From contig CAZWNC010000002.1 in assembly GCA_964635195.1 (NCBI GenBank), positions 3,444-67,443 on the forward strand: a DNA stretch of 64,000 nucleotides, written 5' to 3'. Below, in pieces: positions 19,459 to 47,022 of the stretch. Below the pieces are notes generated by a model. The model did not search any database and was not told the origin of the DNA. It saw only the letters and a program-made list of their open reading frames with translations. The number at the start of each line of letters is the position of its first letter. Within the stretch, counting starts at the first letter, position 1. The translations under genes and the position numbers were made by a program. Origin of the DNA: an uncultured Candidatus Saccharibacteria bacterium (lineage in GTDB: Bacteria; Patescibacteriota; Minisyncoccia; Phycocordibacterales; UBA12088).

Positions 19459-19488
19459 CACCCCGAGTCACAAGCTCGGGGTTTTTGT
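19459..19488. terminator. Bidirectional rho-independent terminator between convergent genes
   Basis: ACCCCGAG-TCACAAG-CTCGGGGT followed by TTTTTG. Confidence 0.7.
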
Positions 19489-19508: not shown

Positions 19509-20192
19509 CTACAACAGATCATACACAAATTGATCGAACGCCATGGTGAGCGAATCACGCTGTGCGACAAAAGAGGTATAGTGCGCTTCAAGTTCCGCAT
19601 GACGTGTTTCGGCCTCCGTGGTAATCGCATTAATCGAGCGTTTATGTTCATCAGTCAACTCACCTCCGTCTTCGAGCACTCGTGTGATGATGGCGTACGT
19701 ATGCTCATGTGTTTCCGAAAGGTTAGCAATAATTCGTGCCGACGTTTCGGCACACGCGCGCGCAAGCGACACAAGATTGTGTGCCTGCTCGCGCGCACGC
19801 ATGCCCGTAAAAATACGTGACATGGTATCGAGATTTTGAATGTTTAAGTACAGTTCGTCTTGTGCGACCGCGGCGTCCGCTATTCCCTTCTGAATCGAAT
19901 CGAGATGCGTAAACGCGACACGCGCGAGTGCCTCACGCTCACCACTCGTTAGCGTGCCGGTCAGAATGTCTTGCAGCAACGCAAGGAGTTCACTTCTATC
20001 GGAGTTCTTTTCGGTACTGGGACTGTGTACGAGAGCTGCGACCCGCGTTGCCGACACGTCGTAGGTGCTGTACGCATCGATGAATCCTACGACACTCGAC
20101 CGCTCACCCTCAAACCCGCCATAGTAGAGCCACGCGTAGGCACCACCACCCCCAAGCATGAGTGCGCAGAGTAGTGTCAAAAAAATTCGCAT
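19509..20192 (-). CDS. Secreted or membrane-anchored hypothetical protein
   Basis: N-terminal MRIFLTLLCALMLGGGGAYA signal. It lies 50 nt downstream of the giant ORF on the same strand. Confidence 0.5.
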   Translation of the reverse strand: MRIFLTLLCALMLGGGGAYAWLYYGGFEGERSSVVGFIDAYSTYDVSATRVAALVHSPSTEKNSDRSELLALLQDILTGTLTSGEREALARVAFTHLDSIQKGIADAAVAQDELYLNIQNLDTMSRIFTGMRAREQAHNLVSLARACAETSARIIANLSETHEHTYAIITRVLEDGGELTDEHKRSINAITTEAETRHAELEAHYTSFVAQRDSLTMAFDQFVYDLL

Positions 20193-20241: not shown

Positions 20242-23200
20242 CTAATCTCCTACCGCATAGAATGTTGTCTGCCCCCGATGTGTTGCTCCCGAAACACCGG
20301 TTGTAGGAATATAAATGCCCCAATACAACACGTCCGTCACCGGTGTTTCCGCCGCCATCGCCTTGGGCAGGTCAACCTCAAGCGTACTAGCGGTTCCTGA
20401 AAGTGCGCCACAAATGACACACGCGGAGTACGTAAATGAGGACGTGGAGAACTTTTGGTTGCCCACAGGAATGGTCGAGGCACCGCTTGTAAGATCCGTA
20501 CCCTCAAGCTCGAGATCGACCGCTATATTACCGGTATTCTGAATGGTCGAAGATGCGTTTGTTTGTGCCGTAGTGCTTGCACCCATCTCAAGCGCCCCAT
20601 ACGCAATATCACCACTCACAACTGACATGGCGAGCATGCTCCCCACCTCCGCACCGTCCGAGGTCGAACTTGCCTCATTCAAGGTATCGTCCATTATGAA
20701 CAGCCTCGCTTCCCATGTCTCAGCACTATAGTCTCCCCAATCGGTTGGATCGGCAAAGTACTGTATGTCTGCGGTGCAGGTCACTTCACACGTCGTACCT
20801 GAAGGTGCACACGTGAGCGGACACTCGAGTGAGTTTAGCTGGTAGCAATTATTTGGATTTGCAGCACAATCCGGACCGACGTCGGTTCTGTAGAAGGTCG
20901 AGGTGGCATAGAGAAGTGTTTCGCCTCCATTCAAATCAGACACGGTACCTGTTGCCACGATGGATGTCGTTTCACCCTCCATAAGCACGATCGGATTCGG
21001 ATCCATGACCGTCGAACCGTTGAATACCCATTCATTGATTTGTGGCCCATAATTTGCCGTCACTTCTGCAAGTGTCTGGTAGGAGTCAAGCTCAGAATCA
21101 CCATCAGAAACGCGCATGCAGTACGCATTGGATATGGCGTCTGCCGTCAACTCGACCGCGTACTCCACCTCGGTCGTGTATCCTTGCGGTAGAGTGGTCG
21201 AGGCGGTTTGATTACTATCGGCTTCAATGAGACGGCCGGCTGTGAACGGGAGGAGCGTAGTCGGTACCAAAAGCGCCTGTGTCTGACCTTGATCGACGTA
21301 CCCGGACGTTGTGGTCATACACACGGGACTGTCACTTCCCGCACATGCCGCCGACGTACCCGGTACAGTATCGAAGTTGACCGAGGGTACCGCATTACAG
21401 GTACCATACCCTGTCTTGTCCGCATACTGCAGTCGCCACTCTTTTCCCCATTCCTGTGGTCCGGAATTTTCTATGGAGAATCGTACCCGGAATGGTTGTC
21501 CCTGATCCACGGTCACTGAAGTATCCTGGGCCGCTTTCCAACTGGCACCCCCTTTCTCTTGCTCAAGCCCAACCCACACGGTGGGCTCATTCGCAAGGTA
21601 CGGTCGCGCCGTATAAAAATCCCAAGCTCCGTGTTGTGTCCAAAAGGAGAAGCCGGAACCACCTGCCGAAGTGTGCGAGAGATCACTTGCCGTTGTTGTT
21701 GCAAAGAGAGCGCCGACACTGTCGTACACCGATGCGTACAGTGTGCCACCGGAAAGCCAGTCCACCTCGACGGTATACCAACCACTAGTCCACGTGACCG
21801 TCGTACTTGCGAGGGTGAGTGCTGCCGTGGCGCGATTGGTCACATCTTCCGCGATTACCAATCGATCAGATGGATACTGTGTCAAACATACCGCGTAATT
21901 GGAGCCAGACCCACCGACTCCAAAGAGTGTACAGGGTTGATCCTCATAATTCTCATCCACATACTGCAAAAAACGAATGGTACTCCCTGGACCGAAGGTG
22001 GTCGTCGTTTGATACAGTCCACCGGTGGTAAAGTTTTCCTCTTGTCCCGATGCGGCATGGAGCGTGTATGCACCTTCGCCACCACTCTCCGCAATCGCAT
22101 CAAACTGAGTTGTGTTGCCGGTGTACCCTGTAAGGTCGTCATCCTCAAAATCATCAAAGAACGTAAACGTGTTCGAACCGCTTTCGGCATTTGCGGCGAA
22201 ATCATTGTCATAGTACAGGTATATGAATCCCGTATCGTTTGCCGAAACACTCGGAATCTTAACCCAAACCGTCGCGGTTGCTGCGGTATATGATTCGATG
22301 AAGTGCGGAAGTGAGGTGGTGCCGGAGTTATCGGTGAAGCGCAAGTCATTCCAACTCGTTTGCATGTCACCAACTTCGTACGCAACCTCAAATCGTACTG
22401 CGGTGTTTGTAAGTGCACCCGCGTTTGGATTCGTCACGTGCACGCGCTTGCGTTTATTCCAGTTGGAATCGTACCATTCACTATCGGGTGCCCCGTCCGT
22501 ACCATCATCATTCCTAAATCTGAAATGTGTCTGCGAAAACTCAAGACACGTGCTGTCGTCCCAACGAATGGAACCACAGGCATCGATACCATCATCATCA
22601 TATGCTTCACCATCTATTTCACCCATATGGTTTCGAAAATCCCAGAAATTCGCATTAGTCGACGTGCCGTTTCGTTTAATGTTCGCTACTCCTGAAACGC
22701 CCGTCGTAGTACCGAACCGTACGCTGGCGATTACCTTGGTCGGATTTTGATCGATGGTGGTCGAGGCGACCTGCAAAAGGTACCCACCGGATTCCGCCCG
22801 CTCAAAATCACCATACGAGAGTGAGGTCACGGTAAGTGCATTGGTCAGCACAAGGCCTGACGCATTTAGATTGCGGAACGAATAGTACTGGGCATTCAAG
22901 GTACCACCCGACTTAGCAAACGCGTAGGTACCCGTTCCTGCAACCGCAATCGTCGTGGTAGCCGACTCGGTACCGACAATTTCGAGTGTCCCTCCCGTAA
23001 ACGACAGTGATGAACTTGACGCGATGCGTACGTCCACCTGTCGCGACCCACCAATCGGTGCCCCTCCCTCAAAGTCGGTTGCATAGCTCCAGTAATCACT
23101 GCCGGTACTCCTTACGTACTCACCCCAGATAAACAGATCTCCGCTCGTGCCACCATGATCCATTGAATAGAGCGAGCCTGTCGAGGGCACCGTTGTGGTT

Positions 23201-29200: not shown

Positions 29201-32200
29201 GTCGTACCGAGTGCAAACGAGAGATTCCCCCCGATTATCATATCTGAAGCTGATACGGAAAGTGTCCCGTATGTCACAGTGAGATTTTTGTTCACATCCA
29301 GCAGACTTGCAAGTGTCCATGTCGCGGTACCGCTCTGTCCAAACGTAAGGGTATTGAACGCGTACTCACTCGCACCCGAGGAGTCAATAGTTTCAAGCGA
29401 GGACGTCGCAGTGAATACGACCGTGCCGTTCCCTGCCGCAAAAATACCGGTATTATTCCAGCTTCCATGTACGTAAAAGGTGTTACTGTCTGCGGTCGTA
29501 GTCCCTCGTATAACGACATCATGCGCATACAGGGTGCCGGAGTTTGCGCTGTCGGGACGATACGTGCTTGAGCTGGCTACATACAGTTTTGTATCGTAGT
29601 ACCCCGCTGAACTGGTGGCGACATATAGGTCGTTCCCCGTGTCAACGTCAAAGAAGAGATCTTCATCACCCGACGACGTGTAGTCGTAGAGGGCTATGTT
29701 TGCATTGCTTGTGGTTGTGGCATCCTGTGACCCGATGGTCAGGTGTCGCTCAAAGAGCTCGACACCCGTCATGTTTCCAAACCCGTCATAACGTGTGACC
29801 GCCGCCGCCTCCTGTGAGTCACCCACCCCGTCTATAAAGACCGTAATCACATCACTCGGGAACATGGTGACGTTTGCGATAGACCACGTTCCGCCTGAAA
29901 TAGTGCCGATTTTCCCGGCCTGAAGCACGCCGTTTACCGCGACACGCACATCACCCCCCGAAGCGACCGGAGTACTCTCGTCATATTGTTTGATAGTCCC
30001 GGAGATAGTGATACCCTCCGACCACGAAATAGTCCAGTCGTGCAAGACGGGGCAATCGCCCGATACACAGACGAAATTCGCGACGTAGCGGATTGTGCCG
30101 TACGTTGCATACGAAACGTTTGTAAGGTCGATACGGTTACTCGTCGTCCCCACCCCATTGCCGGGAAGCGCTTCGTCGGGAATGAGCGCCCATGTCTCAC
30201 CTGCATCGTTCGAGTATTCGATTTGATACAATATATATCCATCGTCAGTGGTGTCGGTCGAACTGGCAATACCCCACCGCGGGCCGGTGCCGTCAGTAAA
30301 TACAACAGGATCTGAAACTATGGAGCCGGACGTGTAGGCGGTATAGCGACGCGCCACCAGGTGGAGTGGCTCTCGACGCACAGCCTGCGTATTACCATCA
30401 CTCTCGAGCTGTTGCGCTACCGACCATTGTGCACCATTCCAGTAGGAGAAGAAGTAATCGTCCGCATCATCGTCGTAGTACAACCCAAGAATGTTTCCAT
30501 CGCCGGTCCGAGCAGTGAAGGCGCTATACGCCTCACCAAGCGTACTCACGTTTTGCGCAATTGTCACCGGTGTCGTCCGATCAAGCACGCGATACTGCTC
30601 GGTCGTCACCACCCCATCACCGTACGTGAAGAGTACATTGCCTTCACGGCCGGCCGTAGTCTCGTACTGACACGACACTTGATTGTTGATCTCATTTACG
30701 CCATCCACCTCCAGCTCAGTCGACGCGCCCCATGCATTCGTCGTGCCATCCCATTCGGCATAGCCAATGTCGGTATCTTCATCGGTATACACGACCGTGA
30801 TACGATCCGTTCCAAGGTCGCGACACATCGACGCTTTGTTGTGATCATTACCGATCGCGGTCGTCGTCGTTGCTTGCCATGACCCGTTCCAGCGCTTAGA
30901 AGCAAAGTTATTGTTGGTACCATTACTAAAGACAATCACCGCATCGGTACCAGAATCTTCATACATAACCGCCATACCCTCGTCGGTCGCTGCACCGGCG
31001 TTTCCGACCAAGGTCGAGTTGCTCCACGTACCACTTCCATTCCACACCTGCGCTTCATAATCTGCGGTGCCAGCATTGTTGAAACGCGCCATCAAAATAA
31101 TCTCGTTTGAGTCCGTGTCTGCTGCGAGCTGTATCCATTCACAGTTTTGTGCAATGGTAAGATTGATCGTACTCGTACCACTCCAGTCCGTACCATCCCA
31201 CGTACGATACACGGCATCCTGCCCGCTACACGCGACAACCATCGCCCGCCCCGAAAGACTTTCGTATGTAATATCGTACCCTCGATATGCCACATTCGAA
31301 ACGGTTGGCACCATTGTCACCAGGTCAGACCAACTTGCAGTATCACCGTCATACACTTGCGCCACCACCTTCCCCGAAGCACCCTCGGTCGCCATGAGGT
31401 ACTCATTTCGAGTCGGCGCGGCGTCGACCCGCACCCAATCAATACGTTCACTCACGTTCTGGGCGCTTTTTTCCGTCCCCCACGCTTGTCCGTTCCAAAT
31501 ACGGTAGCGGGGTGTTTGGATGTTACCCTCCACGTATGCCGTCATCGCTTCGCGAATCGTTGAGGTGATACGAACCTCATCAGACCCATAGGTTTCCGTA
31601 CTGTTGAGTAGCGCGGTGTCGAACTGCTCGTCAGTGGTCTGATACCATGTCGAAACGAGTACCGATGTGTCCACCGTAAAGCTCCTCACCGGTGAATACA
31701 CACTCCACGCATCACCTCCCCCTATATCGGAATCGATTGCACGCACGCGCCACCAGTATGTTGCACCATTCGTAAGCGCGTCTGCGCTTTGTATCGTAAA
31801 CTGAATCGTGTCTCCTTCAACAAATTGTGAGGTATCGGTTGAGCTTGCGGTATTCACAAACCCGGCATGCACCCCCGACCTGCGCGTAGTTGACGCGGCA
31901 AAGTCAGGCGTCGACGACCACTGAAACTCATACTGCAAATTATCACCCTGCGGGTCGGTGGAGTAGAATGTGAACGACGGTGTCGTCGTGCCGACCTTTT
32001 CATTGTCGAACAGGGTATCGAGTGTTGGTTGCTCTACTGCAAGACCCCACGAAATAGTCCAGCTATTGAGGCGCGGTTTCGCTCCTCCGAGGTCTCGAAA
32101 ATTTGCCCGCACCCGTATTTTGCTATACACACTTGGATCAAGCGACAAGAGCGATATCGGTTGCGTCACATCATGTCCGGCTACGTTGTCCGGCAATGCT

Positions 32201-35200
32201 GAGTCCGGTATGAGTGCCCACGCACCGGTCGCTTCCGTATAGTATTCGAGATGATACTTGATATCGCCGGCATTTTCAGCATCAGCCCAATCGAGTGTTC
32301 CCCATGCATTACCGGTCGTCCGCCAATCAAAGTCGATCATGGGACTCGTGCTGGTGCCCTCGGTCAAGGGTGGCGTGAGCACGATATCGTTCGTCGACGT
32401 CGCCTCGGTCGATTCGAGATCGTCCTGCTCAAATTGCTCAAAGGTGGTCTGGTGCCAGGTAGAAATAGTGATAGACGAGCTCGCGGTAAAGCTCCACGGG
32501 AGAGACCATTCACCCCACTCACCACTGCCGTTGGTATCCTTTGCTCGCACACGCCACCAGTAGGTACCGTCCGCAAGCGACGTCGTGGGGACAAAACGCA
32601 CGGTTTCCCCGCTATTAAACGGCGCGAGGTCGTTGGTTGATATGATATTTTTAAACTCACTGTTATCGTTTTCACTCGTACTCTCTATCTCCTGCGATCC
32701 AAACGTATAGTCATCGTCAACCTCGATTTGATAATCAAGTACGTCCCCCTTGCCGTCTTCCGCCACAAAAGTAAACCAGGGGGAGGACGAAGCAAGCGCT
32801 TCGTAGGTAAAGGGTGTCGCGAGTGTCGGTGCAACGGGTGGTGCATTGGTAACAAGTTGCGGGTACCGATCGTAGTCGTTCAGTGTCGTACCGTCAGCAT
32901 TGACGAGGCGGAAACAGTAGTTGGTGCTGGAGGTTGCGTTGTGTTGGAGCACAAAATCAAGCTCGGCCTCTTCACCATCAGCAATCGCGCTTGTGTTCGT
33001 CGCGGTATTATTCTCTTCCTCGTACGACAAAAGCACATCAGTGGTCGAGAGGGTGGTGGTCGAGAGGGTGGTGCCATCTGCAGGCGCGTTGTTATACCCC
33101 CGCCAAGGCTCACTACTCCCTATCGCACCAACCTGTTGCCAGGAAAGTGACGCCGAACACTGCGCACCCTCCGCCCACTGCAGTGACCACATCGCAGTAG
33201 TGGCGGCAAGCGTTACGTTGGTGTCCTCAATCGCTAGACGAAGCCGCAACACCTCGCCACTGCTCGGAGCATGACTTGCACCTATTGCTTCATCCTCGAT
33301 CAGATTGTACGCACCGGATGGGTACGCATCGGTCGGCGTGATACCGCTGGTATTTGCAAACCACTTGTAATGCGTCTGCGTGAGGTACGGCTGCCGCTCC
33401 CATGATATTGTCCAATCGTCCAACGTCGGTGACTCGTTTGTATTTGACGTGAGTGTCGCTTTGAGACAGAGTCGATTGTAATCAGTGGTGGTTGCGATTC
33501 CGGAAAGATCCAGTGGGGACGAGGTTGCCGCAAAACCATCTTCATTACCGGGAAGCACGCCGTTCGGTACCACCGCGGTACAGGTGGATGATGCGGCGGC
33601 AGCCCACAGTACCTGCACCTCAACGCTCGTATTACTTGGCTCGGTTGCACTCCACAGCGCTTCACCCCATGACGACTGTCCAACGACGAGGTCGAAATCA
33701 ACGATCGGAGACACGATATTTCCTACTGACGCTTGGTACCGTTGCGGTGCGAGTGCGATCGGCTCCGCATAGGGTGATGTATCATCCGGCATCGAGGTTT
33801 CAAGTGTCTCACGCGAAGACCACCCGCTCCCGTTCCAATAGGAGAAGTCGAAGCGATCATTCGTATCATCCCGAAAAACCGCAAGGATTTTGCCGTCACC
33901 GGTCCGCACTGAACCGGCAGTCCACGAGTCCTCAATCGTCGTGATGCTTTGCTCGGTAGCAGCAAAACTTGAGCCCGTCCACACACGATAGCGTGCGTTC
34001 GTTTCATCACTGTACGGTATCATCAGGTAGCCATCACGGCCGGTCGTCGTTTCGTACTGGCAAGAAATCGGTCGTGCATGATAGGTCGCACTTCCTTTTC
34101 CATCGTTGTCGACCTGTGTCGTACCCGCCACATACGTATCCCATGCATTTGTCGCACCGTTCCAATACGCAATCTGCACCTGCGCATCTTCGTCGATATA
34201 ACACAGTCCAAGGTTGTTGGTACCATCATCCGCCACTAGCTCACCCCACTCGAAGTCGTCCTGAGTATTGCGACTGGTATACGCAGTCCACGTTTCCGCC
34301 GCACTGTTCCACACTGCACCCACAATACCGGGTGTTTGCCCACCGCCGTTTCCAAGGGCAACGACGGCTTCTTCACCCGATTCTTCCCACTCAACTGCCA
34401 TACGCTCGAACATCTCCTCACCAAGTGTATTGGCACCACCCGTGTACGAAGTAATGTTCCACTTCGTTGTTTCATCCCTATAGACTTGCACCTCGAAATC
34501 AGATGTCGTGTTCGCGGAATCCGCCTGTGCCACCATTACGATTTCGTCAGAACTCGGGCTTGCCGCAAGCTTGATCCAGCTGCAGGGTGCGTTGAACTGC
34601 AAATCGATGGTCGAAGTGGCCGACCAATTGGTGCCGTTCCACACCGAGTAACTTGCCTCATAGTTGGTACCGGAATTGTAACAAAAGACCGCAACCGCGT
34701 TGCCGGACAACGATTGATACGCGATATCGAAACCGCGACGATCGATACTCGTCTGATTCGGATTAAGCTCGGTTGCAGTACTCCATGTTCCCGCTGTGCC
34801 ATTGTACACCTGTACATTGACATCACTGTTCACATCCTGTGTCCCCAGCACATACTCATTGCGAGTAGGCGATGACTCGAGCACCGTCCAGCTGATCCGC
34901 CCACCCACGTCCTGCGCAGAGCCCTCGCTCGACCACGCAGTCCCGCTCCATGTGCGATACCGTGGCGTGGTACCCGCGCCCTCGCCGTACGCGACCATTG
35001 CACCGACAGGCGGTGTGGTTGCGATACGCACCTTGTTTTCGCCGTAGGTTTCAGTACTTATAAGTGTCCCATCGTCAAACTGCGCATCTTCGCTCTGATA
35101 CCACGCCTTCGGGTCGGTACCGGAGACGTACGTAAAGCTCTGCACCGCTGACCACTCACCAAAACTGTTTGAACCGCTCGTATCCTTGGCACGTACCCGC

Positions 35201-38200
35201 CAATAGTAGGTGGTGCCGGTCGTAAGAGCAGTTTGTACCGAGAAACGAATGCGATTACCTTCGGTAAAGGGTGAGGTATCCCCACCGGACGTCACATTGG
35301 TAAAGCAATTTGGCGAGCACCCCGTTTCGTTATCTGATGTGCGATCGGCAAGTGGCGAGGTGTCGAGATCTGCGTCATCATCATACTGTACCTGGTAGAC
35401 CAAGTCGGACGTGCCATCCAGATCGGTCGCGCTAAAATCGAGGTACGGGGTCGATGAACCGGTCTTCTCATTATTGAATGGCACATCATACATAGTCGGC
35501 ATTTCCGGCGAGAGGTTGAACGCCTTCCAGTACCCCAACAACCGATACTCATCAGCGGTCGTCGACTCCGCGTAGTATTCGATGGTGGCACTTGCGGTGT
35601 TGTCCGCCTGCACATGCATGCGTCCCATATTGAAGCCGGTCCCCGCACCGTCCGAGTATGCAAAATCGAGCGTGCGTCCCACCGCCGAACCGTTCGCATG
35701 CACACCGAGCACGTTCGACCCACTGGTGTTTGTGGAGTACGCAAGCAACACTTCGGCGATATTGTTCTTGTACGCGCCGTACCCGTCGAGTGCGCGATCC
35801 TGCCATACCGTCGCCGAGGTCGGTCCCGTGAAATCATCCAACCGCTCCTGATAGGTCAACTCGTCCGGCAACGTGGACCAGTACCCAAGCAAGTAGTAAT
35901 CGACCGAAGCGGCAGCCGCACCCTCGACCTGCGCATACCCCTGTATGGTAGCGTTCGACGTCGAGGCAAGTACGTTCATGGTGATGAAGTTGGCACCACC
36001 GTTTGCGCTCTGGTGTATTTTAACCAAGCGACTGAGCGTTGGTGCGGAGCTGTACCAACGCACACCCGCGTCATAGTCGGTACCTGCGGCAAAATTGGCG
36101 AGTGCCATTTCAACCACGTCTGCATCACCCACTCCGTATCCGGAAAGGTTGATGTTATTCCATGTCGCATCATTCGTGGTACCCAGATTTGGGTCGATGT
36201 TTACTAATCGCTCCACATAGGTACCACTCGTCCAATACCCAAGGATGGTGAAGGTTACTTCCGCCGCCACATCAGAGTACACCTGAATGGAAGAAGTCGC
36301 CGACGCCTGCACGTGCATCGTAACGGTTGACAAGCCGCCGGTCACGCCGGATTCATGGAGCAAAAGGTACCGGTTCAGTGTTGAGGTGGCGGTCGAGCGC
36401 ACACCACCATACCGTTCACGGTTGTTACGACTGTTGGTAATGGCGACTTCAACAATCGCATTAGCCGGTACTCCATAGCCTGCGAGGCTTACCGTTCCCC
36501 ATGTGTCATCACTGGCTGCACTGAATGTCTGGTACATCTCGGTATAGACCGCGAGTGCGTCCGACGCAAGCTTCCACTGGCGCGCCTCGACAAATGGCAA
36601 TCCACTGCCCGAACGTACTTCCGCAGGACCGAGGAGGTAGAGATACGGGGAAACATCCGGTGCGTCGTACTCGTAGGAAAAGGTCTGTGTCTCACCGGCT
36701 GTAAGGTCGACGGTCCAGGTAAGGCGTTTTGCGCCGCCCCACACACTCGTCTCTGCGCCACCTGCGTGCACCAGCACAAAATTTTCCGGTACCGCCTCAA
36801 CGAATTGTCCCGTGAAGTCGCTCGTCGCAGTAAGCTCTAGCTCCATCACGTACGATGCCTTGGGCCAGATACGTGTCGCACCACTGCGACGAATGGTGAA
36901 CGGCACCGACTCACGTACTTCAAACGCGTCACTCACCCGGTGCACCACCTCTCCATTTAGGTTTACGTGCGTCAATTGCAAAGTGTATGTCCCCACCGTA
37001 CGCGGGCGGTACCACGCAAGGTAATCGGGGTCATCGGTGACATTGTTTGCTCCACACGTACCCTGTGGTTCCACCCCCACTTCCTCGGCGTTACCCTCAG
37101 GATCCGTCACGGTCAGATGCAGTTCTGCGTTACAGATCGTATCACCCTTGTCGTCGAGGGCCGCCATATGAAATTCAATGGAATCGTCGGGCAGATAGAT
37201 GGATTGTGGCGTATTGATCGCAAGTACCCCCCAGTAGAAATCAAACGAATCGGTAAAAACGGTGCCGAGCTCATCGACACTGATCTCGAGGGTATAGAGA
37301 CCCGGTTGAATAGCTCGCGGCATCTCGGTCATACGTATCGTCCACTGCCCCTCGGTGCCATAGATGACCTCGAACCGCGCATCCTCAACGCGTACTCCGC
37401 CATGCAGGAGGTGTACCTCACCAACCTGCGCCAAGCGCTCACGGAATAGCCCCCGGAAGAAACGATTCACGACACCCTTTTGCGCACGGTACTGCAACGC
37501 AAACTCCGGTCGATCACCAAGCTCAAAATCGCGAAGCGCTTCGCGAAATGCGTGGAAGCGGGGGTCACGTAACTCTCGCATATACGCAATCCCTTGGAAG
37601 AGGTCCGGTCGAGCAAGTGGTTCATACACCGACACCGCGGGTATCGGAAGTTCCTCCAATACACCAAACACAAAGGTAGATGACGCGAGACGATATCGTT
37701 CAAACAATGTGGACACGCGTCCGTCCGCCAAGCGTGTTTCGGTCGTGTGCATATCTTCGGGGAGTACAAATGAAAGCGTGCGGACTCCCGCGGCATACTC
37801 ACTCAAAGCGGGGGTAAGTGAGATAGGTCCGCGCGCAGAGAGTCGCTCAGCGGCATGTGGTATGAATACGTCACGTGACGCACCAAAGGAAAGTGGTGAC
37901 ACGTCAGCATCATCGGAAAGCGTGACACTATTTTCGTCTCGTTCACTCACCACGGACACGACCGCACCTTCCTCCGGCTCCGCAAGACCCAAATACTCGA
38001 TGGGCGAAGCAGTCAACGCAGGCGCATGAAGCCGTGCAGCCTCGTCGACCTGCTCGTTACCAAAGTAAGCGTACAGCGATGTTGTACCGCGCGATCCGCC
38101 ATCAGATAGTTCGACGGCATACTGCGCTTCCTGATCGACGTACGTATACCTGAACTCTTTGACCGGAATCTCCGTTCGTGTACCTGCGTCAAAAAAACGT

Positions 38201-40593
38201 ATATCCCTGCCGTCGAGTGCCGCGTGTGTAAAAAGGTCTGCGAGTGTGCGGTCGACACTCACTTCATACAGCGTCGGTATGTCGCCCTCATTCACATCAC
38301 CATGCGGAATAAGGGTGAGAGGCATGCGATACTTGAAAGCGCTTCGCCACCACACACTGCGCGTCGCATCACCCTCGTCACTGCGCGCCTCGATCAGCAA
38401 TTCCCCTGCTCGCTGAACCGGAAAGGAAAGGTCGATCGCAAAAAACCGAGTTTCATTGGCCATGAGCGCAAACTCCTCATCGGTCGCATACCCGTTTGAG
38501 AGATTGGGAGCAACCACCACCTCAGGTGCACCACCAAACAATCGAGCGAGTATACTCCCTCCTTCTGCGCGTTCCGCTGCAAGAGGAGATATCGCCACCT
38601 CCTGCCACGCACTCTCATAGGCGAGTGCTGCATCGACTGACACGCGCTCGTTACCGACAATACAGTTGGTCTTGTCCGCATTGAAACTGTTACACACCTC
38701 TGTCTCACCCGTCGCCTTGCACGTGTACGTTGTTGAGAGTGAAAGAGCGGCATCGTACGCAGCATCATCAAAAGCGGCGCTATCCTGGGGCGATACCGTG
38801 TTATCTCCAGATTCTTGTGTTCCCGAAGTTGCCCCTTCGTTCGAAACGACGGTATCGCTTGTCACCTCACCTGCATCATTGTTCGGCACATCCACTCCGT
38901 CTTGGGTATCCTGTCCCGCTACTTCCGCATTCGGCATAGCCTCAGACTGAGCATCGTCAACAGGTGGTACGGCATCACCGGTCGGAACGAAGGCCTCGTC
39001 ACGTGCCACTTCGTCACTCTCATCTGTCTCCCCACTTTCAACCGCGGTCTGCGAAACGGTCACATCACTCGCCATGGCGTCTGTAGCAGATGTCTCCTCA
39101 CCATCACCTAGCTTCCACCCGCTTTCACAGAAGTACGCCACTTCACTGTAACTTGGTGTCATGTGTGTTTGCGCGACATCTTCAACCCGCTCCAGGACGC
39201 GCACGACCTCGGCCTGTCGACCGAGGTGTGTGACCAAACTGAAGGATGTGTCTTCATCGGAACTGTTGGTCACGGCAATATATGCACGAGCTGAAGTGAG
39301 GCCGTCATATATGTCGGCATCGCTTCGAAGTACCAACTGTTCCCCGAGCGTCTCTTCGGTTTCCGTAAGTTCAATGCGCTTGTTATCCGCAACGAGCAAG
39401 TCCGGCCGCGCAGAATCTTCCAACACCGCGAGCTCCTCCACGATATTGTCTGCAACAGGAAGGGCTTCGTCTGCGGACGCAACCTCATACAGCGTGTCAA
39501 CCCACACACTATCCAAGAACACTTCGGTACGAACGGTGCTATTGCGCACAAACTCCACCTCCACCTTGAAGTCCTGCAGTGCGTCCCATGCCGCAAGGTC
39601 GGGAAGCGGAAAGGAAAGGTGACCACCGCCGTTCGCATTTGAGAGTTCGCGATCGATATACACCTGCCCCGCGATACGCCACTCACCTCGGTAGTGATAG
39701 CGCACCACGATGGAATCCGGTGTGAACGGCTCCCCGAACGTGCGCGCGGCAAGCGAAAGGCGGAGTGTATACCCTTTAATCGTATGCTCAGAAAGCACGC
39801 TTCCAATATCAAACCGTTCAAAGAGGAGCGTATGGCATTCTTTACCGAGTACCGTACAGCTTCGCATATCCTCTTCGGGACTCCGTGCAAACGAACGTGA
39901 CTCTTCGATGTCCACCGTATCCGCATCGCTCGAATCCGTATCATCACCCTCTTGTGACACTACGGTATCGATCGCTTCAGGCGCACTTTCTGTGACCATT
40001 TCAGTATCAGAGTCCGAAACGCCCTCACCTACTGAAACATCCTGATTAAACATGACGGCAGTACCTTCATCTTCAGCACGTACCGTGCGACCGACAAATC
40101 CCCGAAGCGTGTCAAAAAGATACGCAGACGGTGAGACATCCGGAATCGGAGTCGTGGTGTCCTCTTCGACAGGTGCAACCGCGTCAACAGGCTCTGCGCC
40201 CTCCTCCGACGCGGCCTCATCCTGTACTTCCGCATCACCCCACTCACCCTGTGTCGGTGTGGGAGTATCGACGAGATCCTGTTGTACGCCTGTCGTACGA
40301 TCGCCGGTGTCACCCTCGGTCACTATTACAAATGCACCATTATCGCGCGTGAAGTCATCAAAGGTTGCGCGTTCACCCAGCGCCTGCTCCAGTGCATGAT
40401 TCTCCTTCTCCCATCCTTCACCCACTACTGAAACAGGAAACACATGTATCAAACGCTCCTCGATACCCGCAAACGCGGAAACAACGTACATGGCACAAAG
40501 TGCAAGGAGAAAAAACACACCGCGTGTTTTGTATCGTGTGAATACTTTGCGATGCATGCCCATACCAGAAAAAACGGCGTTCGCCGGCCTCAT
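20242..40593 (-). CDS. Giant 6,783-aa modular cell-surface protein. N-terminal signal-anchor, acidic linker, duplicated FN3-like plus beta-propeller-like supermodules, three ~790-aa beta-helix-like tandem repeats, DUF2341-like and LamG-like jelly-rolls, and a Cys-rich C-terminus
   Basis: A single stop-free frame runs 20,352 nt. A hydrophobic segment GVFFLLALCAMYVVSAFAG sits near the N-terminus. Motifs recur with divergent sequence, including YYWRVRAKD...GEWS three times and LYS[QM]DH..GDL[YF]I[YW]G.Y.R.SG..YWS..TDF[DE]G three times. Near the C-terminus is a DUF2341-like stretch SWNDLRFTDNSG..LPHFIES...ATVWVKIP...IYLYYDND. No catalytic motif was seen. Confidence 0.9.
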   Translation of the reverse strand: MRPANAVFSGMGMHRKVFTRYKTRGVFFLLALCAMYVVSAFAGIEERLIHVFPVSVVGEGWEKENHALEQALGERATFDDFTRDNGAFVIVTEGDTGDRTTGVQQDLVDTPTPTQGEWGDAEVQDEAASEEGAEPVDAVAPVEEDTTTPIPDVSPSAYLFDTLRGFVGRTVRAEDEGTAVMFNQDVSVGEGVSDSDTEMVTESAPEAIDTVVSQEGDDTDSSDADTVDIEESRSFARSPEEDMRSCTVLGKECHTLLFERFDIGSVLSEHTIKGYTLRLSLAARTFGEPFTPDSIVVRYHYRGEWRIAGQVYIDRELSNANGGGHLSFPLPDLAAWDALQDFKVEVEFVRNSTVRTEVFLDSVWVDTLYEVASADEALPVADNIVEELAVLEDSARPDLLVADNKRIELTETEETLGEQLVLRSDADIYDGLTSARAYIAVTNSSDEDTSFSLVTHLGRQAEVVRVLERVEDVAQTHMTPSYSEVAYFCESGWKLGDGEETSATDAMASDVTVSQTAVESGETDESDEVARDEAFVPTGDAVPPVDDAQSEAMPNAEVAGQDTQDGVDVPNNDAGEVTSDTVVSNEGATSGTQESGDNTVSPQDSAAFDDAAYDAALSLSTTYTCKATGETEVCNSFNADKTNCIVGNERVSVDAALAYESAWQEVAISPLAAERAEGGSILARLFGGAPEVVVAPNLSNGYATDEEFALMANETRFFAIDLSFPVQRAGELLIEARSDEGDATRSVWWRSAFKYRMPLTLIPHGDVNEGDIPTLYEVSVDRTLADLFTHAALDGRDIRFFDAGTRTEIPVKEFRYTYVDQEAQYAVELSDGGSRGTTSLYAYFGNEQVDEAARLHAPALTASPIEYLGLAEPEEGAVVSVVSERDENSVTLSDDADVSPLSFGASRDVFIPHAAERLSARGPISLTPALSEYAAGVRTLSFVLPEDMHTTETRLADGRVSTLFERYRLASSTFVFGVLEELPIPAVSVYEPLARPDLFQGIAYMRELRDPRFHAFREALRDFELGDRPEFALQYRAQKGVVNRFFRGLFRERLAQVGEVHLLHGGVRVEDARFEVIYGTEGQWTIRMTEMPRAIQPGLYTLEISVDELGTVFTDSFDFYWGVLAINTPQSIYLPDDSIEFHMAALDDKGDTICNAELHLTVTDPEGNAEEVGVEPQGTCGANNVTDDPDYLAWYRPRTVGTYTLQLTHVNLNGEVVHRVSDAFEVRESVPFTIRRSGATRIWPKASYVMELELTATSDFTGQFVEAVPENFVLVHAGGAETSVWGGAKRLTWTVDLTAGETQTFSYEYDAPDVSPYLYLLGPAEVRSGSGLPFVEARQWKLASDALAVYTEMYQTFSAASDDTWGTVSLAGYGVPANAIVEVAITNSRNNRERYGGVRSTATSTLNRYLLLHESGVTGGLSTVTMHVQASATSSIQVYSDVAAEVTFTILGYWTSGTYVERLVNIDPNLGTTNDATWNNINLSGYGVGDADVVEMALANFAAGTDYDAGVRWYSSAPTLSRLVKIHQSANGGANFITMNVLASTSNATIQGYAQVEGAAAASVDYYLLGYWSTLPDELTYQERLDDFTGPTSATVWQDRALDGYGAYKNNIAEVLLAYSTNTSGSNVLGVHANGSAVGRTLDFAYSDGAGTGFNMGRMHVQADNTASATIEYYAESTTADEYRLLGYWKAFNLSPEMPTMYDVPFNNEKTGSSTPYLDFSATDLDGTSDLVYQVQYDDDADLDTSPLADRTSDNETGCSPNCFTNVTSGGDTSPFTEGNRIRFSVQTALTTGTTYYWRVRAKDTSGSNSFGEWSAVQSFTYVSGTDPKAWYQSEDAQFDDGTLISTETYGENKVRIATTPPVGAMVAYGEGAGTTPRYRTWSGTAWSSEGSAQDVGGRISWTVLESSPTRNEYVLGTQDVNSDVNVQVYNGTAGTWSTATELNPNQTSIDRRGFDIAYQSLSGNAVAVFCYNSGTNYEASYSVWNGTNWSATSTIDLQFNAPCSWIKLAASPSSDEIVMVAQADSANTTSDFEVQVYRDETTKWNITSYTGGANTLGEEMFERMAVEWEESGEEAVVALGNGGGQTPGIVGAVWNSAAETWTAYTSRNTQDDFEWGELVADDGTNNLGLCYIDEDAQVQIAYWNGATNAWDTYVAGTTQVDNDGKGSATYHARPISCQYETTTGRDGYLMIPYSDETNARYRVWTGSSFAATEQSITTIEDSWTAGSVRTGDGKILAVFRDDTNDRFDFSYWNGSGWSSRETLETSMPDDTSPYAEPIALAPQRYQASVGNIVSPIVDFDLVVGQSSWGEALWSATEPSNTSVEVQVLWAAAASSTCTAVVPNGVLPGNEDGFAATSSPLDLSGIATTTDYNRLCLKATLTSNTNESPTLDDWTISWERQPYLTQTHYKWFANTSGITPTDAYPSGAYNLIEDEAIGASHAPSSGEVLRLRLAIEDTNVTLAATTAMWSLQWAEGAQCSASLSWQQVGAIGSSEPWRGYNNAPADGTTLSTTTLSTTDVLLSYEEENNTATNTSAIADGEEAELDFVLQHNATSSTNYCFRLVNADGTTLNDYDRYPQLVTNAPPVAPTLATPFTYEALASSSPWFTFVAEDGKGDVLDYQIEVDDDYTFGSQEIESTSENDNSEFKNIISTNDLAPFNSGETVRFVPTTSLADGTYWWRVRAKDTNGSGEWGEWSLPWSFTASSSITISTWHQTTFEQFEQDDLESTEATSTNDIVLTPPLTEGTSTSPMIDFDWRTTGNAWGTLDWADAENAGDIKYHLEYYTEATGAWALIPDSALPDNVAGHDVTQPISLLSLDPSVYSKIRVRANFRDLGGAKPRLNSWTISWGLAVEQPTLDTLFDNEKVGTTTPSFTFYSTDPQGDNLQYEFQWSSTPDFAASTTRRSGVHAGFVNTASSTDTSQFVEGDTIQFTIQSADALTNGATYWWRVRAIDSDIGGGDAWSVYSPVRSFTVDTSVLVSTWYQTTDEQFDTALLNSTETYGSDEVRITSTIREAMTAYVEGNIQTPRYRIWNGQAWGTEKSAQNVSERIDWVRVDAAPTRNEYLMATEGASGKVVAQVYDGDTASWSDLVTMVPTVSNVAYRGYDITYESLSGRAMVVACSGQDAVYRTWDGTDWSGTSTINLTIAQNCEWIQLAADTDSNEIILMARFNNAGTADYEAQVWNGSGTWSNSTLVGNAGAATDEGMAVMYEDSGTDAVIVFSNGTNNNFASKRWNGSWQATTTTAIGNDHNKASMCRDLGTDRITVVYTDEDTDIGYAEWDGTTNAWGASTELEVDGVNEINNQVSCQYETTAGREGNVLFTYGDGVVTTEQYRVLDRTTPVTIAQNVSTLGEAYSAFTARTGDGNILGLYYDDDADDYFFSYWNGAQWSVAQQLESDGNTQAVRREPLHLVARRYTAYTSGSIVSDPVVFTDGTGPRWGIASSTDTTDDGYILYQIEYSNDAGETWALIPDEALPGNGVGTTSNRIDLTNVSYATYGTIRYVANFVCVSGDCPVLHDWTISWSEGITISGTIKQYDESTPVASGGDVRVAVNGVLQAGKIGTISGGTWSIANVTMFPSDVITVFIDGVGDSQEAAAVTRYDGFGNMTGVELFERHLTIGSQDATTTSNANIALYDYTSSGDEDLFFDVDTGNDLYVATSSAGYYDTKLYVASSSTYRPDSANSGTLYAHDVVIRGTTTADSNTFYVHGSWNNTGIFAAGNGTVVFTATSSLETIDSSGASEYAFNTLTFGQSGTATWTLASLLDVNKNLTVTYGTLSVSASDMIIGGNLSFALGTTFVKGTGTTTFDGATTPVTITDSTASKQDLGAVHVNGSSKSVALQSAVKLTDLTIATANSFDVSALNYPLEVRGYFRNYGSFGARAGTVTFTATSTSNPIYPGASSFWNLTANGVGGNWYFEQPTVTIGNTLTVATGTLTLALGTTTVSGNLTNTGGVLQHNGGTVELAGAGAKTIYQNGSPLQNITVSGTGSWSWTDTNATTSGTVRVGNGTLTLPSGTFAIGKSLINTGGTIAHNSGTLRFTSYIAETIRTNGSNLHTVLFDGAGGTFTLADTNLSASGTVRFVQGTTTLPSGTFTVGGSFLTTGGTWAHGNGAVFFNSSATGHTINPGQNAFNQVTFNNASGGWTVSSNATSTGAWTIANAASFTAGSGVTIEVLGTFTNSAPSATTWDGSALYLNSGTGYTVGTKTQNAEGYGTLRIGANTDIRMWQASSTGAVVEQTGSLYSQDHAAQDGDLYIYGTYERTSGADYWSHATDFDGTGIGGSPRQVDVRFASGAAARFSNATLHVVGGASASTTISNQGSGSYGLSVENGTVTAQYYSMTDMDTHGFSILGSSTVTSLSDGVYTLTAVGASSTMLTVSSTTIDANPMFQIQRVAFSTSTGITEGYNVTASGTASSYWWFRNHNGNYDGEDYDSDPVVGAGSLRWDDSGFTIDVSGTVYAGEGIGGAPATCNGSTQVLRLVVSGGATYDTHCDAGTGTFTFNDVTYSGDVSLVAFVFGTTTKAAVVSRSPQSDITGFDLYEHRVIVRHESVDALTIANMMPYDSDQHADVPFDAESGMLTVSPETSLHVWTGKTFAPGGNVTLQSGGSGAGYDGTLRLASGSTFTAVGSESHSIGGSFIADASATFTAAQSTVTLNATTTGKTVAPSSSFYNLTFSGADGAWTIASSTTVGNAMTVSDGTVSGAVNLNVQNGALSGDGTLAFSAGTVTVGKGGTFGGANDWTFNNLTLGDGTAYTTTKNGNGNVLVTGVLTVAATHVLDAGSVNWTLNGAGAVLSVAGTFTANTSTTTFAGTSAMTVPALAYHHLVLAPSGAGSPTYTLSGGTPSAATLSVGNGTNPVTVNVTASNPLLTVSGMVWIRANATYSAANTNDLLIGGSYVNQGTFTSNGGGVVFNATETGKTITPGLSSFHHLTLNGVGGGWTMLGSATTTGNFLLTSAAAYTQTSGTTLSVQGVFTNTVGGGATTWDGSTLYLQSGTAYPMNTKTAGGDVYGTLRVGANTDVNMWNSTSTVYTVDRTGSLYSQDHDGEDGALYIWGDYVRASGNEYWSYETDFDGTALGGSPRTVQVRLAPNATTTLTGGTWNIVGTSTMSTTSIATQGGGTYALRVTGGTFNAQYYKIRDISATGLEFSGSPTVSQLSDGDLELSIQGGTMLTVAGSVISANPIKRWDRISFATSTGIASGYNASTTGVSTSFWRFTPALGNYYGEMHDGDSAPDPDPGYLIWDDSNSQITISGNVYSNESGSVSSLCTGASVVTLVLDGVSPQTTSCAPGTGAYSFTNISMPVSVVTVYLDGVAGKAAHVLVDPVLTLTDMHLYENRVVVRHEDVNPVTIAHMATYDSSDDTDIPFDANDGVSDTLTVSANHKLIVWTGKTFTPGGDVTLNSGGTGTEYDGTLELRDNASYISSPTVAQAITIGGSWLTGTGATFTAGTSTVTFTATTSGKLVSPNSSAFNNLTFNGSGGVWTFTDRDATTTRHFTISAGNVTLGTSTLSVGGSFVNSATMSAASTSIRFSSAQAQTVAFGGYAVGSLTFAGAGAHTMTDTQATSTGSVSITAGSVALPSGTFAIANGFSAQGGTFSHSGTLRMYGTLTTQTLRFGASAARHLAIAGTGSWAFADTHATTTGTTTISSGGLTAPAGTFAVGGSFVNTGTFNSNAGLLYLYATTTGQTITASSSLFSNVVLRGVGGGWTVTGSATTSGMWRLQQGASFTLASSTMLEVGGVFENAFASTTTDWTNSTLYLNASGTAYTVNTRNTGGDTYAYLTLGANTDVRMWDSAAATTTVPSTGSLYSMDHGGTSGDLFIWGEYVRSTGSDYWSYATDFEGGAPIGGSRQVDVRIASSSSLSFTGGTLEIVGTESATTTIAVAGTGTYAFAKSGGTLNAQYYSFRNLNASGLVLTNALTVTSLSYGDFERAESGGYLLQVASTTIDQNPTKVIASVRFGTTTGVSGVANIKRNGTSTNANFWDFRNHMGEIDGEAYDDDGIDACGSIRWDDSTCLEFSQTHFRFRNDDGTDGAPDSEWYDSNWNKRKRVHVTNPNAGALTNTAVRFEVAYEVGDMQTSWNDLRFTDNSGTTSLPHFIESYTAATATVWVKIPSVSANDTGFIYLYYDNDFAANAESGSNTFTFFDDFEDDDLTGYTGNTTQFDAIAESGGEGAYTLHAASGQEENFTTGGLYQTTTTFGPGSTIRFLQYVDENYEDQPCTLFGVGGSGSNYAVCLTQYPSDRLVIAEDVTNRATAALTLASTTVTWTSGWYTVEVDWLSGGTLYASVYDSVGALFATTTASDLSHTSAGGSGFSFWTQHGAWDFYTARPYLANEPTVWVGLEQEKGGASWKAAQDTSVTVDQGQPFRVRFSIENSGPQEWGKEWRLQYADKTGYGTCNAVPSVNFDTVPGTSAACAGSDSPVCMTTTSGYVDQGQTQALLVPTTLLPFTAGRLIEADSNQTASTTLPQGYTTEVEYAVELTADAISNAYCMRVSDGDSELDSYQTLAEVTANYGPQINEWVFNGSTVMDPNPIVLMEGETTSIVATGTVSDLNGGETLLYATSTFYRTDVGPDCAANPNNCYQLNSLECPLTCAPSGTTCEVTCTADIQYFADPTDWGDYSAETWEARLFIMDDTLNEASSTSDGAEVGSMLAMSVVSGDIAYGALEMGASTTAQTNASSTIQNTGNIAVDLELEGTDLTSGASTIPVGNQKFSTSSFTYSACVICGALSGTASTLEVDLPKAMAAETPVTDVLYWGIYIPTTGVSGATHRGQTTFYAVGD
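22510..24180 (-). repeat. Beta-helix-like tandem repeat unit 3 of 3 (C-terminally truncated; approximate bounds)
   Basis: Anchor LYSMDHGGTSGDLFIWG is encoded near 23158. The unit starts VTFTATTSGKLV. Confidence 0.5.
24180..26760 (-). repeat. Beta-helix-like tandem repeat unit 2 of 3 (approximate bounds)
   Basis: Anchor LYSQDHDGEDGALYIWG is encoded near 25470. The unit starts VTLNATTTGKTV. Confidence 0.5.
26760..28940 (-). repeat. Beta-helix-like tandem repeat unit 1 of 3 inside the giant ORF (approximate bounds)
   Basis: Anchor LYSQDHAAQDGDLYIYG is encoded near 27860. Upstream of it are GGT-rich ~44-aa mini-repeats. Confidence 0.5.
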
Positions 40594-42502: not shown

Positions 42503-42519
42503 AGCAAGGAGCGAGTGAT

Positions 42520-43014
42520 TTACTCGCGTGAGTGTTGCTCGTCGACCCGCACCACGTTGAGGCGCAGACCCTTTGATGCCCGGCCGACAAGCGGTAAGCG
42601 CAGTGCGAGTACCCCGTCTTTTGTTTTTGCTTCGGCACGCTCCGGATCGATCTGGTCGGGAAGAATAATCTGACGATAAAAGTCGCCCCAATGACACTCC
42701 TCGAGAGTGTAGTCGCCATTTTGTGTGCTGTGGACTTCGTGCATCAGACTCTCTGGACGCGCTGCTGAGCCTTGAATGTTCACGACGTCGTTCTCACCCG
42801 AAATAGAAACATCGAGCGTACGCATATCCATGCCGGCAAGCTGCGCATAGATAATGATTTCATCGTCGGACTGAAACACGTCAACGGGAAGCTGGAGTGC
42901 GTGTTCGGGCACGACTTCTTGCGAACCACCGTGCTGCGTCGACGCACCTTCAGTCGGTCTGCCGCTTTGATCGACCAGACCTTTGCCTTTGAGTTTATCC
43001 ATGAATGTACCCAT
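42520..43014 (-). CDS. Hsp20/alpha-crystallin family small heat-shock protein
   Basis: 164 aa with an ACD core VDVFQSDDEIIIYAQLAGMDMRTLDVSISGENDVVNIQGS...GDFYRQIILPDQIDPERAEAKTKDGVLALRLP. Confidence 0.9.
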   Translation of the reverse strand: MGTFMDKLKGKGLVDQSGRPTEGASTQHGGSQEVVPEHALQLPVDVFQSDDEIIIYAQLAGMDMRTLDVSISGENDVVNIQGSAARPESLMHEVHSTQNGDYTLEECHWGDFYRQIILPDQIDPERAEAKTKDGVLALRLPLVGRASKGLRLNVVRVDEQHSRE

Positions 43015-46944: not shown

Positions 46945-47022
46945 GACTCACAATGGTTAACTACAAGCCCCCGCACACACTATGCACGAGGGCTTGGCCA
47001 CAGCATTCTCTAATAAGTATCT

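Follow-up and report, generated by a model that had tools for sequence, protein, structure and literature searches.

Does an uninterrupted minus-strand open reading frame (ORF) of 6,783 codons encode one protein and, if so, what might a cell do with it? The question is posed by positions 20242–40593 of a 64,000-nt stretch of contig CAZWNC010000002.1 (assembly GCA_964635195.1; the whole stretch is referred to below as the window), in which a first-pass annotation, made from the letters alone, had recognized a giant, modular surface protein. Bacteria belonging to the candidate phyla radiation (CPR) have an episymbiotic lifestyle, and the Paceibacterota and other Parcubacteria, among the most abundant uncultured bacteria, are thought to be cell-attached. 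Here, we report that the ORF is a real, intact single gene, conserved end to end in independent assemblies; that its product is all-beta and modular, without a recognizable catalytic domain; and that, judged by sequence comparison, the gene is a typical, unusually complete member of a widespread, uncharacterized Paceibacterota family. That the gene is real and single, its product exported and part of a family of giant proteins is, taken jointly, close to certain; a role of the product as glycan-binding adhesin is probable to a lesser degree.

A single intact gene and its N-terminus

According to the ORF list and its translation, the giant ORF opens with ATG and contains a single, terminal stop codon. 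With a stop-codon probability of 0.0425, taken from the region's own base composition, 6,783 stop-free codons would arise by chance at ~1e-128, while the remaining five frames of the same DNA contain 112–391 stops each and a longest open run of 257 codons; the earlier view that this is no chance ORF thus stands. DNA repeat scans of the gene revealed neither a direct repeat >25 nt nor a meaningful tandem repeat. At the protein level, internal repeats were mapped by tiled self-comparison (a whole-protein BLAST self-search gave the identity match only) and proved to be diverged, sharing at most 66% amino-acid identity. The lack of DNA repeats, together with old, diverged protein repeats, makes a collapsed or repeat-driven chimeric assembly unlikely.

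In Parcubacteria GW2011_GWD2_42_14 (locus L006), the orthologue occupies one frame and aligns as a single high-scoring segment pair with amino acids (aa) 10–4699 (53.8% identity), as far as the retrieved sequence of the locus extends. Another orthologue, P0088 (7,456 aa, encoded on a JGI contig of 201 kb, with a cluster mate of 7,469 aa in an independent Logan assembly), is collinear with the giant protein from its first residue, which falls at M11, through the identical C-terminal ...FYAVGD, at 50–61% identity. The sole difference consists of two inserted DUF2341 + LamG cassettes (P0088 aa 2505–2848 and 4405–4751), and both insertion points are bridged by L006. Overall, every module junction of the giant gene is spanned by at least one independently assembled orthologue, and uninterrupted ORFs of 5–7.6 thousand codons with the same module order are present in L006, P0088, P0237 and >20 further representatives. 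At the 3′ end, three assemblies of ~90% nucleotide identity (L008–L010) retain the last 184–687 codons at 95–97% amino-acid identity, and the dN/dS of 0.03–0.04 over these codons indicates strong purifying selection. Collinear full-length orthologues and this low ratio bear out the first-pass call of one gene.

In some other genomes, the orthologue is split, at sites that differ from case to case: at aa ~370 and ~2470 in L002 (locus positions ~3840 and ~10160–10220), at ~1300 in L003 (~4200–4270) and near aa 4250–4630 in L011 and L012 (~16469 and ~22759, respectively). At each of these breaks, the homologous reading simply resumes in another frame. Breaks at different places with a resuming frame point to lineage- or assembly-specific frameshifts or deletions rather than to conserved cistron boundaries. 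With one or two frameshifts or small deletions per split orthologue from metagenome-assembled genomes (MAGs), gene callers report two to three 'proteins', and public annotations are mostly fragments. Contigs of close relatives terminate within the giant gene, which shows that the locus commonly fragments assemblies; the family also explains frequent CPR assembly breaks at such loci.

As all orthologues begin at the equivalent of M11 or M13, aligning from aa 10–11 on, the true start probably lies 30–36 nt downstream of the annotated one (nt 40563 or 40557), for a probable true length of ~6,771–6,773 aa. The N-terminus (aa 1–43; 40465..40593; this and all following coordinates within the gene refer to the minus strand) comprises a basic n-region, 17–19 hydrophobic residues, A-F-A and then G-IEERLIHVFP, and is predicted to be a Sec-type signal, either signal peptide or signal anchor. 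As the first-pass annotation had noted, a basic stretch precedes the hydrophobic segment GVFFLLALCAMYVVSAFAG (aa 25–43), the sole transmembrane (TM)-like segment of the giant protein. Its further reading as a signal-anchor held for the hydrophobic segment, but anchoring is uncertain: the segment closes in a conserved (A/V)-F-A signal-peptidase-type site and may hence be a cleaved signal peptide. This (A/V)FA site, followed by an xEERxIH(V/I)FP pattern, is common to P0088, L002, L003, L006 and many family members. Inspection of the sequence and TM scans located neither LPXTG nor a second TM segment in the giant protein, in line with the initial reading.

Modular architecture and a widespread family

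The giant protein is acidic (D+E 11.6%, K+R 4.7%), rich in Thr, Ser, Gly and Ala, and has a mass of ~0.7 MDa. Homology searches were done in three pieces. Pfam matched only Ig_Rha78A_N, DUF2341 and, weakly, MG2, NCBIfam had no match in the protein, and no significant PDB sequence match was obtained with the N-terminal part, the repeats of 115 aa, the solenoid or either family profile. A catalytic family was found neither in Pfam or NCBIfam at E ≤ 0.1 nor in the PDB sequence searches, in agreement with the first-pass remark that an enzymatic motif is absent.

Super-repeat A (~700 aa) is present in two copies plus a partial one. Copy A1 (aa ~1700–2410; 33364..35496) was resolved by Pfam, self-comparison and modeling into an FN3-like domain, a beta-propeller (aa ~1860–2290) and a beta-sandwich; copy A2 (aa 2855–3540; 29974..32031), 38–55% identical to A1, contains an FN3-like domain, a second propeller recognized by its blade motifs (aa ~3010–3420) and a sandwich. 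The FN3-like module, of which there are three internal copies, corresponds to Pfam Ig_Rha78A_N (E = 1.8e-9). In an AlphaFold2 model of aa 1690–2600, residues ~1860–2290 formed a beta-propeller with confidence (predicted local distance difference test, pLDDT, 80–94). Its best single-domain Foldseek matches were the seven-bladed PLL/PHL lectins of Photorhabdus (template-modeling score 0.65–0.69, target-normalized; probability 1.0), followed by Kelch-type propellers at ~0.5. The sequence itself displays eight W-x-G-x-x-W-type blade motifs per propeller copy, compared to the seven blades of PLL/PHL lectins. As a module, the propeller is also found on its own in small secreted proteins (P0032, P0033, P0036–P0038, P0043 and P0047; 480–570 aa), once fused to a cohesin domain (P0046) and once beside a VCBS/FG-GAP-type repeat (P0039), a distribution that would be consistent with a mobile ligand-binding module.

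Toward the C-terminus, a DUF2341 domain (aa ~6036–6155; 22129..22488) scored well above the Pfam gathering cut-off (PF10102, E = 2.4e-19, 70 bits vs. 23.4) and places the protein in the DUF2341 class. Adjoining it is a ConA (concanavalin A)-like or LamG-like lectin jelly roll (aa ~6160–6350; 21544..22116), identified by a fold match: a beta-sandwich superimposable on ConA-like lectins and carbohydrate-binding modules (CBMs). Non-catalytic CBMs and lectins are its best matches, with likenesses to ERGIC-53, to lectin modules in the Aap and SraP adhesins and to phage receptor-binding CBMs; the fold also matches GH16 enzymes and PL14 alginate lyase. The C-terminal region (aa 6350–6783; 20245..21546) consists of a beta module, a Cys-rich Ig-like domain (aa ~6520–6620) and a terminal beta-sandwich ending in ...YWGIYIPTTGVSGATHRGQTTFYAVGD. 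Eight Cys fall within aa 6501–6750, and a conserved six-Cys pattern (CxxxxNNCYQxxxxxCxxxxCxGxxCxxxC) marks the last ~270 residues.

Between the second propeller and DUF2341 extends a solenoid region (22534..29976) composed of a pre-helix module (aa 3540–3880) and three super-repeats B of ~800 aa each (B1, aa ~3880–4650; B2, 4650–5465; B3, 5465–6020), with a self-similarity of up to 66%. These low-charge repeats, rich in T, S, G and A, were modeled as a run of short strands (pLDDT 70–85) and show a periodicity of ~75 aa (z 4.3–5.7). The FN3-like, propeller-like, DUF2341 and LamG-like modules and the Cys-rich tail of the first-pass description were thus all recovered, whereas its beta-helix-like modules were recovered in part, as a solenoid model with periodicity for which a fold match was not obtained.

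A family profile built from aa 401–1350 was used for an exhaustive search of 1.84 billion cluster representatives. Of these, 2,039 matched at E ≤ 1e-3 (1,186 of them at E ≤ 1e-30), and each match covered the aa ~1000–1350 module. Many members of the family are 5,500–7,600 aa long. Among the 150 best of the 2,039, 26 are at least 5,000 aa long (cluster mates included) and 15 at least 6,000 aa, the longest reaching 7,622 aa. When fourteen segments of the giant protein were mapped on 23 representatives of at least 5,000 aa, ~18 displayed the same module order: signal and EERxIHVFP motif, N-domain, MG2-like module, HY[KR]W/FN3/sandwich units, three solenoid super-repeats, DUF2341/ConA-like unit and C-terminal domain. 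Three B copies were found in ~18 of these 23 giant relatives and propellers in six. The family's C-terminal domain ends in WGIxVPxGxxxxxHxGxxxFxAxGD; a search with the C-terminal 764 aa returned 11 full-coverage homologues at 42–60% identity, all of them fragments at contig ends. The giant protein possesses the features of the family, i.e. the signal with xEERxIH(V/I)FP, the MG2-like module, the order of solenoid, DUF2341, ConA-like and C-terminal domains, and the gene neighborhood described below.

Orthologues differ mainly by whole DUF2341 + LamG cassettes at module boundaries (P0088; L002 9987–10710), which indicates that, in the evolution of the family, cassettes are gained and lost while the scaffold stays fixed. 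Named relatives with this architecture are labeled Paceibacterota, Pacebacteria, Parcubacteria or Minisyncoccia, L007 (Candidatus Saccharibacteria) being the exception. NCBI labels fragments of the family 'DUF2341 domain-containing protein' or 'LamG domain-containing protein' [Ca. Paceibacterota].

The remaining modules lie mostly in the N-terminal half. A conserved N-terminal domain (aa 240–400; 39394..39876), bordered by acidic low-complexity linkers (aa ~95–235 and ~495–620), is present in 84 of the 150 family representatives and has no Pfam or PDB match. The conserved region at aa 620–1000 (37594..38736), with invariant alignment columns, harbors both the Cys motif YTCKATGETEVCNSFNADKTNCIVGN and, at aa ~750–870, a diverged DUF2341-like stretch. 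The latter resembles the C-terminal DUF2341 weakly in pairwise comparison (E = 0.002) and cross-matches with DUF2341 cassettes. The family-defining MG2-like beta-sandwich module (aa 1000–1350; 36544..37596) is matched by all of the 150 best representatives; Pfam MG2 itself is weak here (E = 2.8e-4, below cut-off) and was seen in eight of nine relatives, in one above cut-off. Self-comparison delineated three lineage-specific tandem repeats of ~115 aa (aa 1361–1708; 35470..36513), shared by three of the 150 representatives and without PDB or Pfam match. Finally, an HY[KR]W-type beta module (aa 2410–2590) and an extra FN3-like and sandwich pair (aa 2590–2850) occupy 32044..33366, where model confidence is low.

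Gene neighborhood and the rest of the window

Wherever the sequence upstream can be seen, in six loci (the window, L002, L006, L007, L011 and L012), gene order is the same and, where the locus is long enough, runs g385, g407, g175, a Big_13 + dockerin protein, HSP20, a cohesin-TM protein and the giant gene. In each of the six, the gene immediately upstream of the giant one encodes a cohesin protein (40988..42505, minus strand; Pfam Cohesin, E = 5.7e-7) that combines a signal, the cohesin, a Big_13-like domain, a TM segment and a charged tail, i.e. the layout of a type-I membrane protein displaying its cohesin domain. It is preceded by a cytoplasmic-type small heat-shock protein of the HSP20/alpha-crystallin family (42520..43014, minus strand; Pfam HSP20, E = 4.4e-10), the best-kept member of the cluster: its identity amounts to 76–79% in L002, L006 and L007 (42% in L011 and L012), whereas the remaining cluster genes are ~50–55% identical among orthologues. 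One may speculate that HSP20 acts as a holdase for the giant pre-protein. Further upstream, Pfam identified a secreted Big_13 protein with a C-terminal dockerin (43178..45064, minus strand; orthologues in L006, L011 and L012). In the giant protein itself, Pfam matched neither a cohesin nor a dockerin module.

The TM scan and locus comparison placed g175, g407 (C-terminal TM) and g385 (signal peptide, ending in ...YVATPVF) at 45096..48180 on the minus strand; g407 matched WxLIP_PGBD weakly (E = 0.025). Three paralogous minus-strand proteins, each of which begins with a signal and has a TM segment at its C-terminus, were noted at 45721–46944, 48390–49763 and 49760–51301. They share ~30% identity with one another's L006 orthologue and include one sub-threshold match to a WxL-interacting-protein peptidoglycan-binding domain, hints of a possible Firmicutes-like WxL/Csc-type surface complex at 45721–51301. 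A WxL-domain reading of g385 and of g1612, a large ORF described below, was rejected, with no support from Pfam even at E ≤ 5.

Downstream, 49 nt past the stop codon of the giant gene, g227 (19509..20192, minus strand) encodes a 227-aa protein with an N-terminal hydrophobic segment; L008–L010 carry it at the corresponding place with 98% identity. This putative membrane or secreted protein is probably co-transcribed with the giant gene. A terminator-like hairpin follows g227 at 19460–19482, and promoter and terminator scans around the ends of the giant gene yielded nothing informative.

Housekeeping genes nearby encode GAPDH, RNase J, CorA, PBP2, MraW, RelA/SpoT, an ABC-F protein, PepA and an aminotransferase, and the 90%-identity clusters of neighboring housekeeping genes are labeled Candidatus Pacebacteria/Paceibacterota. 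The source of the window is accordingly assigned to a MAG of Candidatus Paceibacterota (Parcubacteria, CPR). Scans of the window for tRNAs and Rfam families found nothing. Synteny with L008–L010 stops exactly at window position 18802, beside an HTH_38 (IS30/Tc3-type) transposase-like ORF (17763–18776, plus strand); beyond this point, the three relatives instead carry an fn3 protein and a MacB-type ABC transporter, which suggests an insertion sequence-associated rearrangement in the window genome at ~18802. Two more large minus-strand ORFs lack Pfam matches, one of 1,349 aa (54962–59011) and one of 1,612 aa (g1612; 59113–63951). The latter has modules in common with the giant family (35–43% identical to portions of the orthologues in L002, L006 and L007), and its C-terminal domain (...LVYIVVPVF) recurs in g385 and in the giant proteins P0132, P0138 and P0124. 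Since its N-terminus begins mid-domain, g1612 may extend further or be frameshifted. Two long plus-strand ORFs (14058–14939 and 16925–17620) in a stretch of lower GC (0.48–0.50), whose Cys-, His- and Arg-rich translations match no family, are probably non-coding or read in the wrong frame.

Function, rival explanations and known systems

On balance, it is probable that the giant protein is a Sec-exported fibrillar glycan-binding adhesin of a CPR episymbiont, with adhesion being the part that we infer. It would be exported by Sec and presented on the exterior as a long fiber of many domains, with the solenoid, Ig/FN3, MG and sandwich modules serving as stalk and the two PLL-lectin-like propellers and the ConA-like/DUF2341 unit as glycan-binding heads. 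Through these heads, the tiny cell would bind to polysaccharides in the envelope of a host or partner cell, or to some other surface rich in glycans, and the fiber might be held on its producer by an uncleaved N-terminal anchor or via the neighboring cohesin/dockerin surface proteins. In a saccharibacterium amenable to genetics, epibiotic growth requires envelope proteins with dockerin, FN3 and lectin-like VCBS domains (PMC10633639), and Patescibacteria proteins longer than 4,000 aa that bear DUF2341/FhaB domains were put forward as adhesins (PMC11809585). A bolder version, which we regard as doubtful, unites the giant protein and its linked neighbors (cohesin, dockerin, HSP20 and WxLIP-like/TM-anchored proteins) in an undescribed Paceibacterota attachment apparatus, in which a ~0.7-MDa lectin fiber would be kept fit for export by a dedicated HSP20 holdase and moored to the cell by a cellulosome-style cohesin module; this apparatus would form the main determinant of host recognition.

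Several findings weigh against an adhesive fiber. The fold matches come at ~10% sequence identity and thus speak for the fold, not for sugar specificity. The solenoid fold is assigned from a medium-confidence model and periodicity only, no fold match having been obtained, and roughly one third of the protein (aa 1–1000, 1350–1700, 2400–2600 and 3540–3880) carries no fold assignment. A cell-wall anchor motif was not identified in the giant protein. Nor was a dockerin-like Ca-binding motif found when sought there, which leaves gene neighborhood as the sole tie to the adjacent cohesin.

The rival that survives best, though unlikely, holds that the protein is a structural part of the CPR envelope—a coat resembling an S-layer, a spacer or a scaffold—whose lectin-like domains bind the cell's own wall polymers without specific adhesion. 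Conserved architecture and very strong purifying selection would suit such a role, as would the clustering with membrane- or wall-associated proteins (the cohesin-TM protein and, given its weak WxLIP_PGBD match, g407), and self-glycan binding could serve as the anchor for which no dedicated motif exists. S-layer proteins, however, are normally far smaller and lack a stalk-plus-head layout, the use of the propeller in small stand-alone secreted proteins fits ligand binding, and nothing here indicates lattice formation.

Decidedly unlikely is a secreted enzyme degrading polysaccharides or cell walls, in which the beta-helix regions would conceal a cryptic lyase or hydrolase and the lectin modules would act as CBMs. 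Right-handed beta-helices are indeed common among polysaccharide lyase and hydrolase folds. The resemblance of the ConA-like fold to GH16 and PL14 enzymes points the same way, as do the Pec_lyase, GH127 and C5-epimerase domains borne by distant DUF2341 relatives and the link between giant genes and cell-wall degradation in predatory Omnitrophota (bioRxiv 10.1101/2023.11.21.568195). Against this stand the catalytic families missing from the searches described above, the non-catalytic nature of the best ConA-like matches, and a solenoid whose low-charge, T/S/G/A-rich composition is typical of stalks.

Still less probable is a PilY1-like tip adhesin associated with type IV pili. This idea draws on the DUF2341 domain, whose carriers in archaeal type IV pilus loci have been proposed as pilus-tip adhesins (PMC4858521), an annotation repeated elsewhere (PMC11809585). 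Pilus genes, however, were found neither in the 64-kb window nor in six related loci. The N-terminus is of Sec type rather than that of a class III prepilin, as it shows no G that leads into a hydrophobic run with Glu at +5 (the orthologues have no G either), and 0.7 MDa is far beyond known tip adhesins.

We give very little credence to a carrier of the FhaB, contact-dependent inhibition or polymorphic-toxin kind, i.e. a beta-helix filament with a C-terminal toxin and a downstream immunity gene. The long solenoid region and the small g227 gene would fit, but Pfam and NCBIfam found no two-partner secretion (TPS) domain, toxin domain or pre-toxin motif. Moreover, the C-terminal 764 aa, conserved family-wide with the same terminal motif and under purifying selection, are not polymorphic, and we know of no outer-membrane TpsB partner in CPR cells. 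The least credible explanation, an artefact of assembly or annotation (a chimeric contig, or adjacent genes read as one ORF), could cite the frameshifted MAG orthologues and the relatives' contigs broken within the gene, but is countered by breaks at differing positions with the true frame running across, by the many uninterrupted ORFs of like module order, by the lack of repeats >25 nt and by the ~1e-128 chance estimate.

The giant gene accounts for ~2% of a ~1-Mb genome (a size inferred from typical CPR genomes), which, together with strong purifying selection, makes it clearly important to the cell. Given their fixed architecture, lectin-like modules and conserved neighborhood, the members of the family are concrete, testable candidates for host recognition. 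The end-to-end architecture and the invariant dockerin/HSP20/cohesin neighborhood appear to be undescribed in the literature searched, and we consider them the most interesting lead. Current views are not overturned: very large DUF2341/FN3 surface proteins of Patescibacteria have been reported before and will not surprise a CPR specialist.

How does the giant protein relate to known systems? Cellulosome-type assemblies likewise pair membrane-anchored cohesin with secreted dockerin proteins, here encoded next to the giant gene, but glycoside hydrolases are absent from the present case and neither dockerin nor cohesin is detectable in the giant protein itself. Like the giant RTX adhesins LapA, SiiE and MpIBP, which are megadalton-sized extracellular proteins, it combines extender regions with putative sugar- or protein-binding modules near one end. 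It differs in lacking a HemolysinCabind or related Pfam match, RTX repeats and the C-terminal signal of type I secretion; an N-terminal Sec signal replaces the retention module, and the extender chemistry is different. The Photorhabdus PLL/PHL lectins (PDB 5c9l, 5mxe and 8q7u), the best structural match, share with it a Trp-containing repeated blade motif, in the face of the low identity and the differing blade count given above and of a likeness that stems from a modeled fold.

Fibrillar adhesins combine a stalk with an adhesive domain (PMC8286594), e.g. the staphylococcal SraP and Aap with their L-type lectin modules. By comparison, the giant protein is ~3–10 times larger than typical, has a largely solenoid stalk instead of tandem Ig domains, carries no LPXTG or other known anchor, and places its putative adhesive modules internally or C-terminally. 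Assignment to the sortase substrates was rejected, with no LPXTG and the only hydrophobic segment at aa 23–41. The Omnitrophota giants (Archaeovorins, dockerin-type) are a further case of very long genes in ultra-small, host-dependent bacteria with a dockerin association; their attachment and carbohydrate domains were found mostly by structure prediction, and they comprise at least 30,000 aa with many TM regions, SecA-like domains and their own dockerins and enzymes (bioRxiv 10.1101/2023.11.21.568195). In contrast, the present protein has 6,783 aa, one hydrophobic segment and no SecA match, and dockerin and cohesin reside in neighboring genes. The first-pass comparison with 'giant genes' of episymbiotic small-genome bacteria therefore suits the CPR taxon but not the size, as 6.8 thousand residues remain below the classes termed 'large' (at least 10,000 aa) and 'giant' (at least 30,000 aa) in the same preprint.

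Closest are the large (>4,000 aa) DUF2341/FhaB proteins of Patescibacteria, which come from the same superphylum, fall in the same size class, contain DUF2341 and FN3-like modules and have a proposed role in adhesion or host interaction (PMC11809585). Such proteins on record, along with the family fragments named by NCBI, mark the giant protein as one of an already known kind. An FhaB/TPS domain was not detected in it, and membership in the TpsA/FhaB or autotransporter class was rejected in the absence of Haemagg_act, Fil_haemagg or Autotransporter matches in Pfam and NCBIfam. For the proteins of Patescibacterium danicum, full-length homologues were not found, and rapid domain shuffling was suggested (PMC11809585); the giant family, by contrast, retains a fixed end-to-end architecture and synteny across relatives at 30–60% identity.

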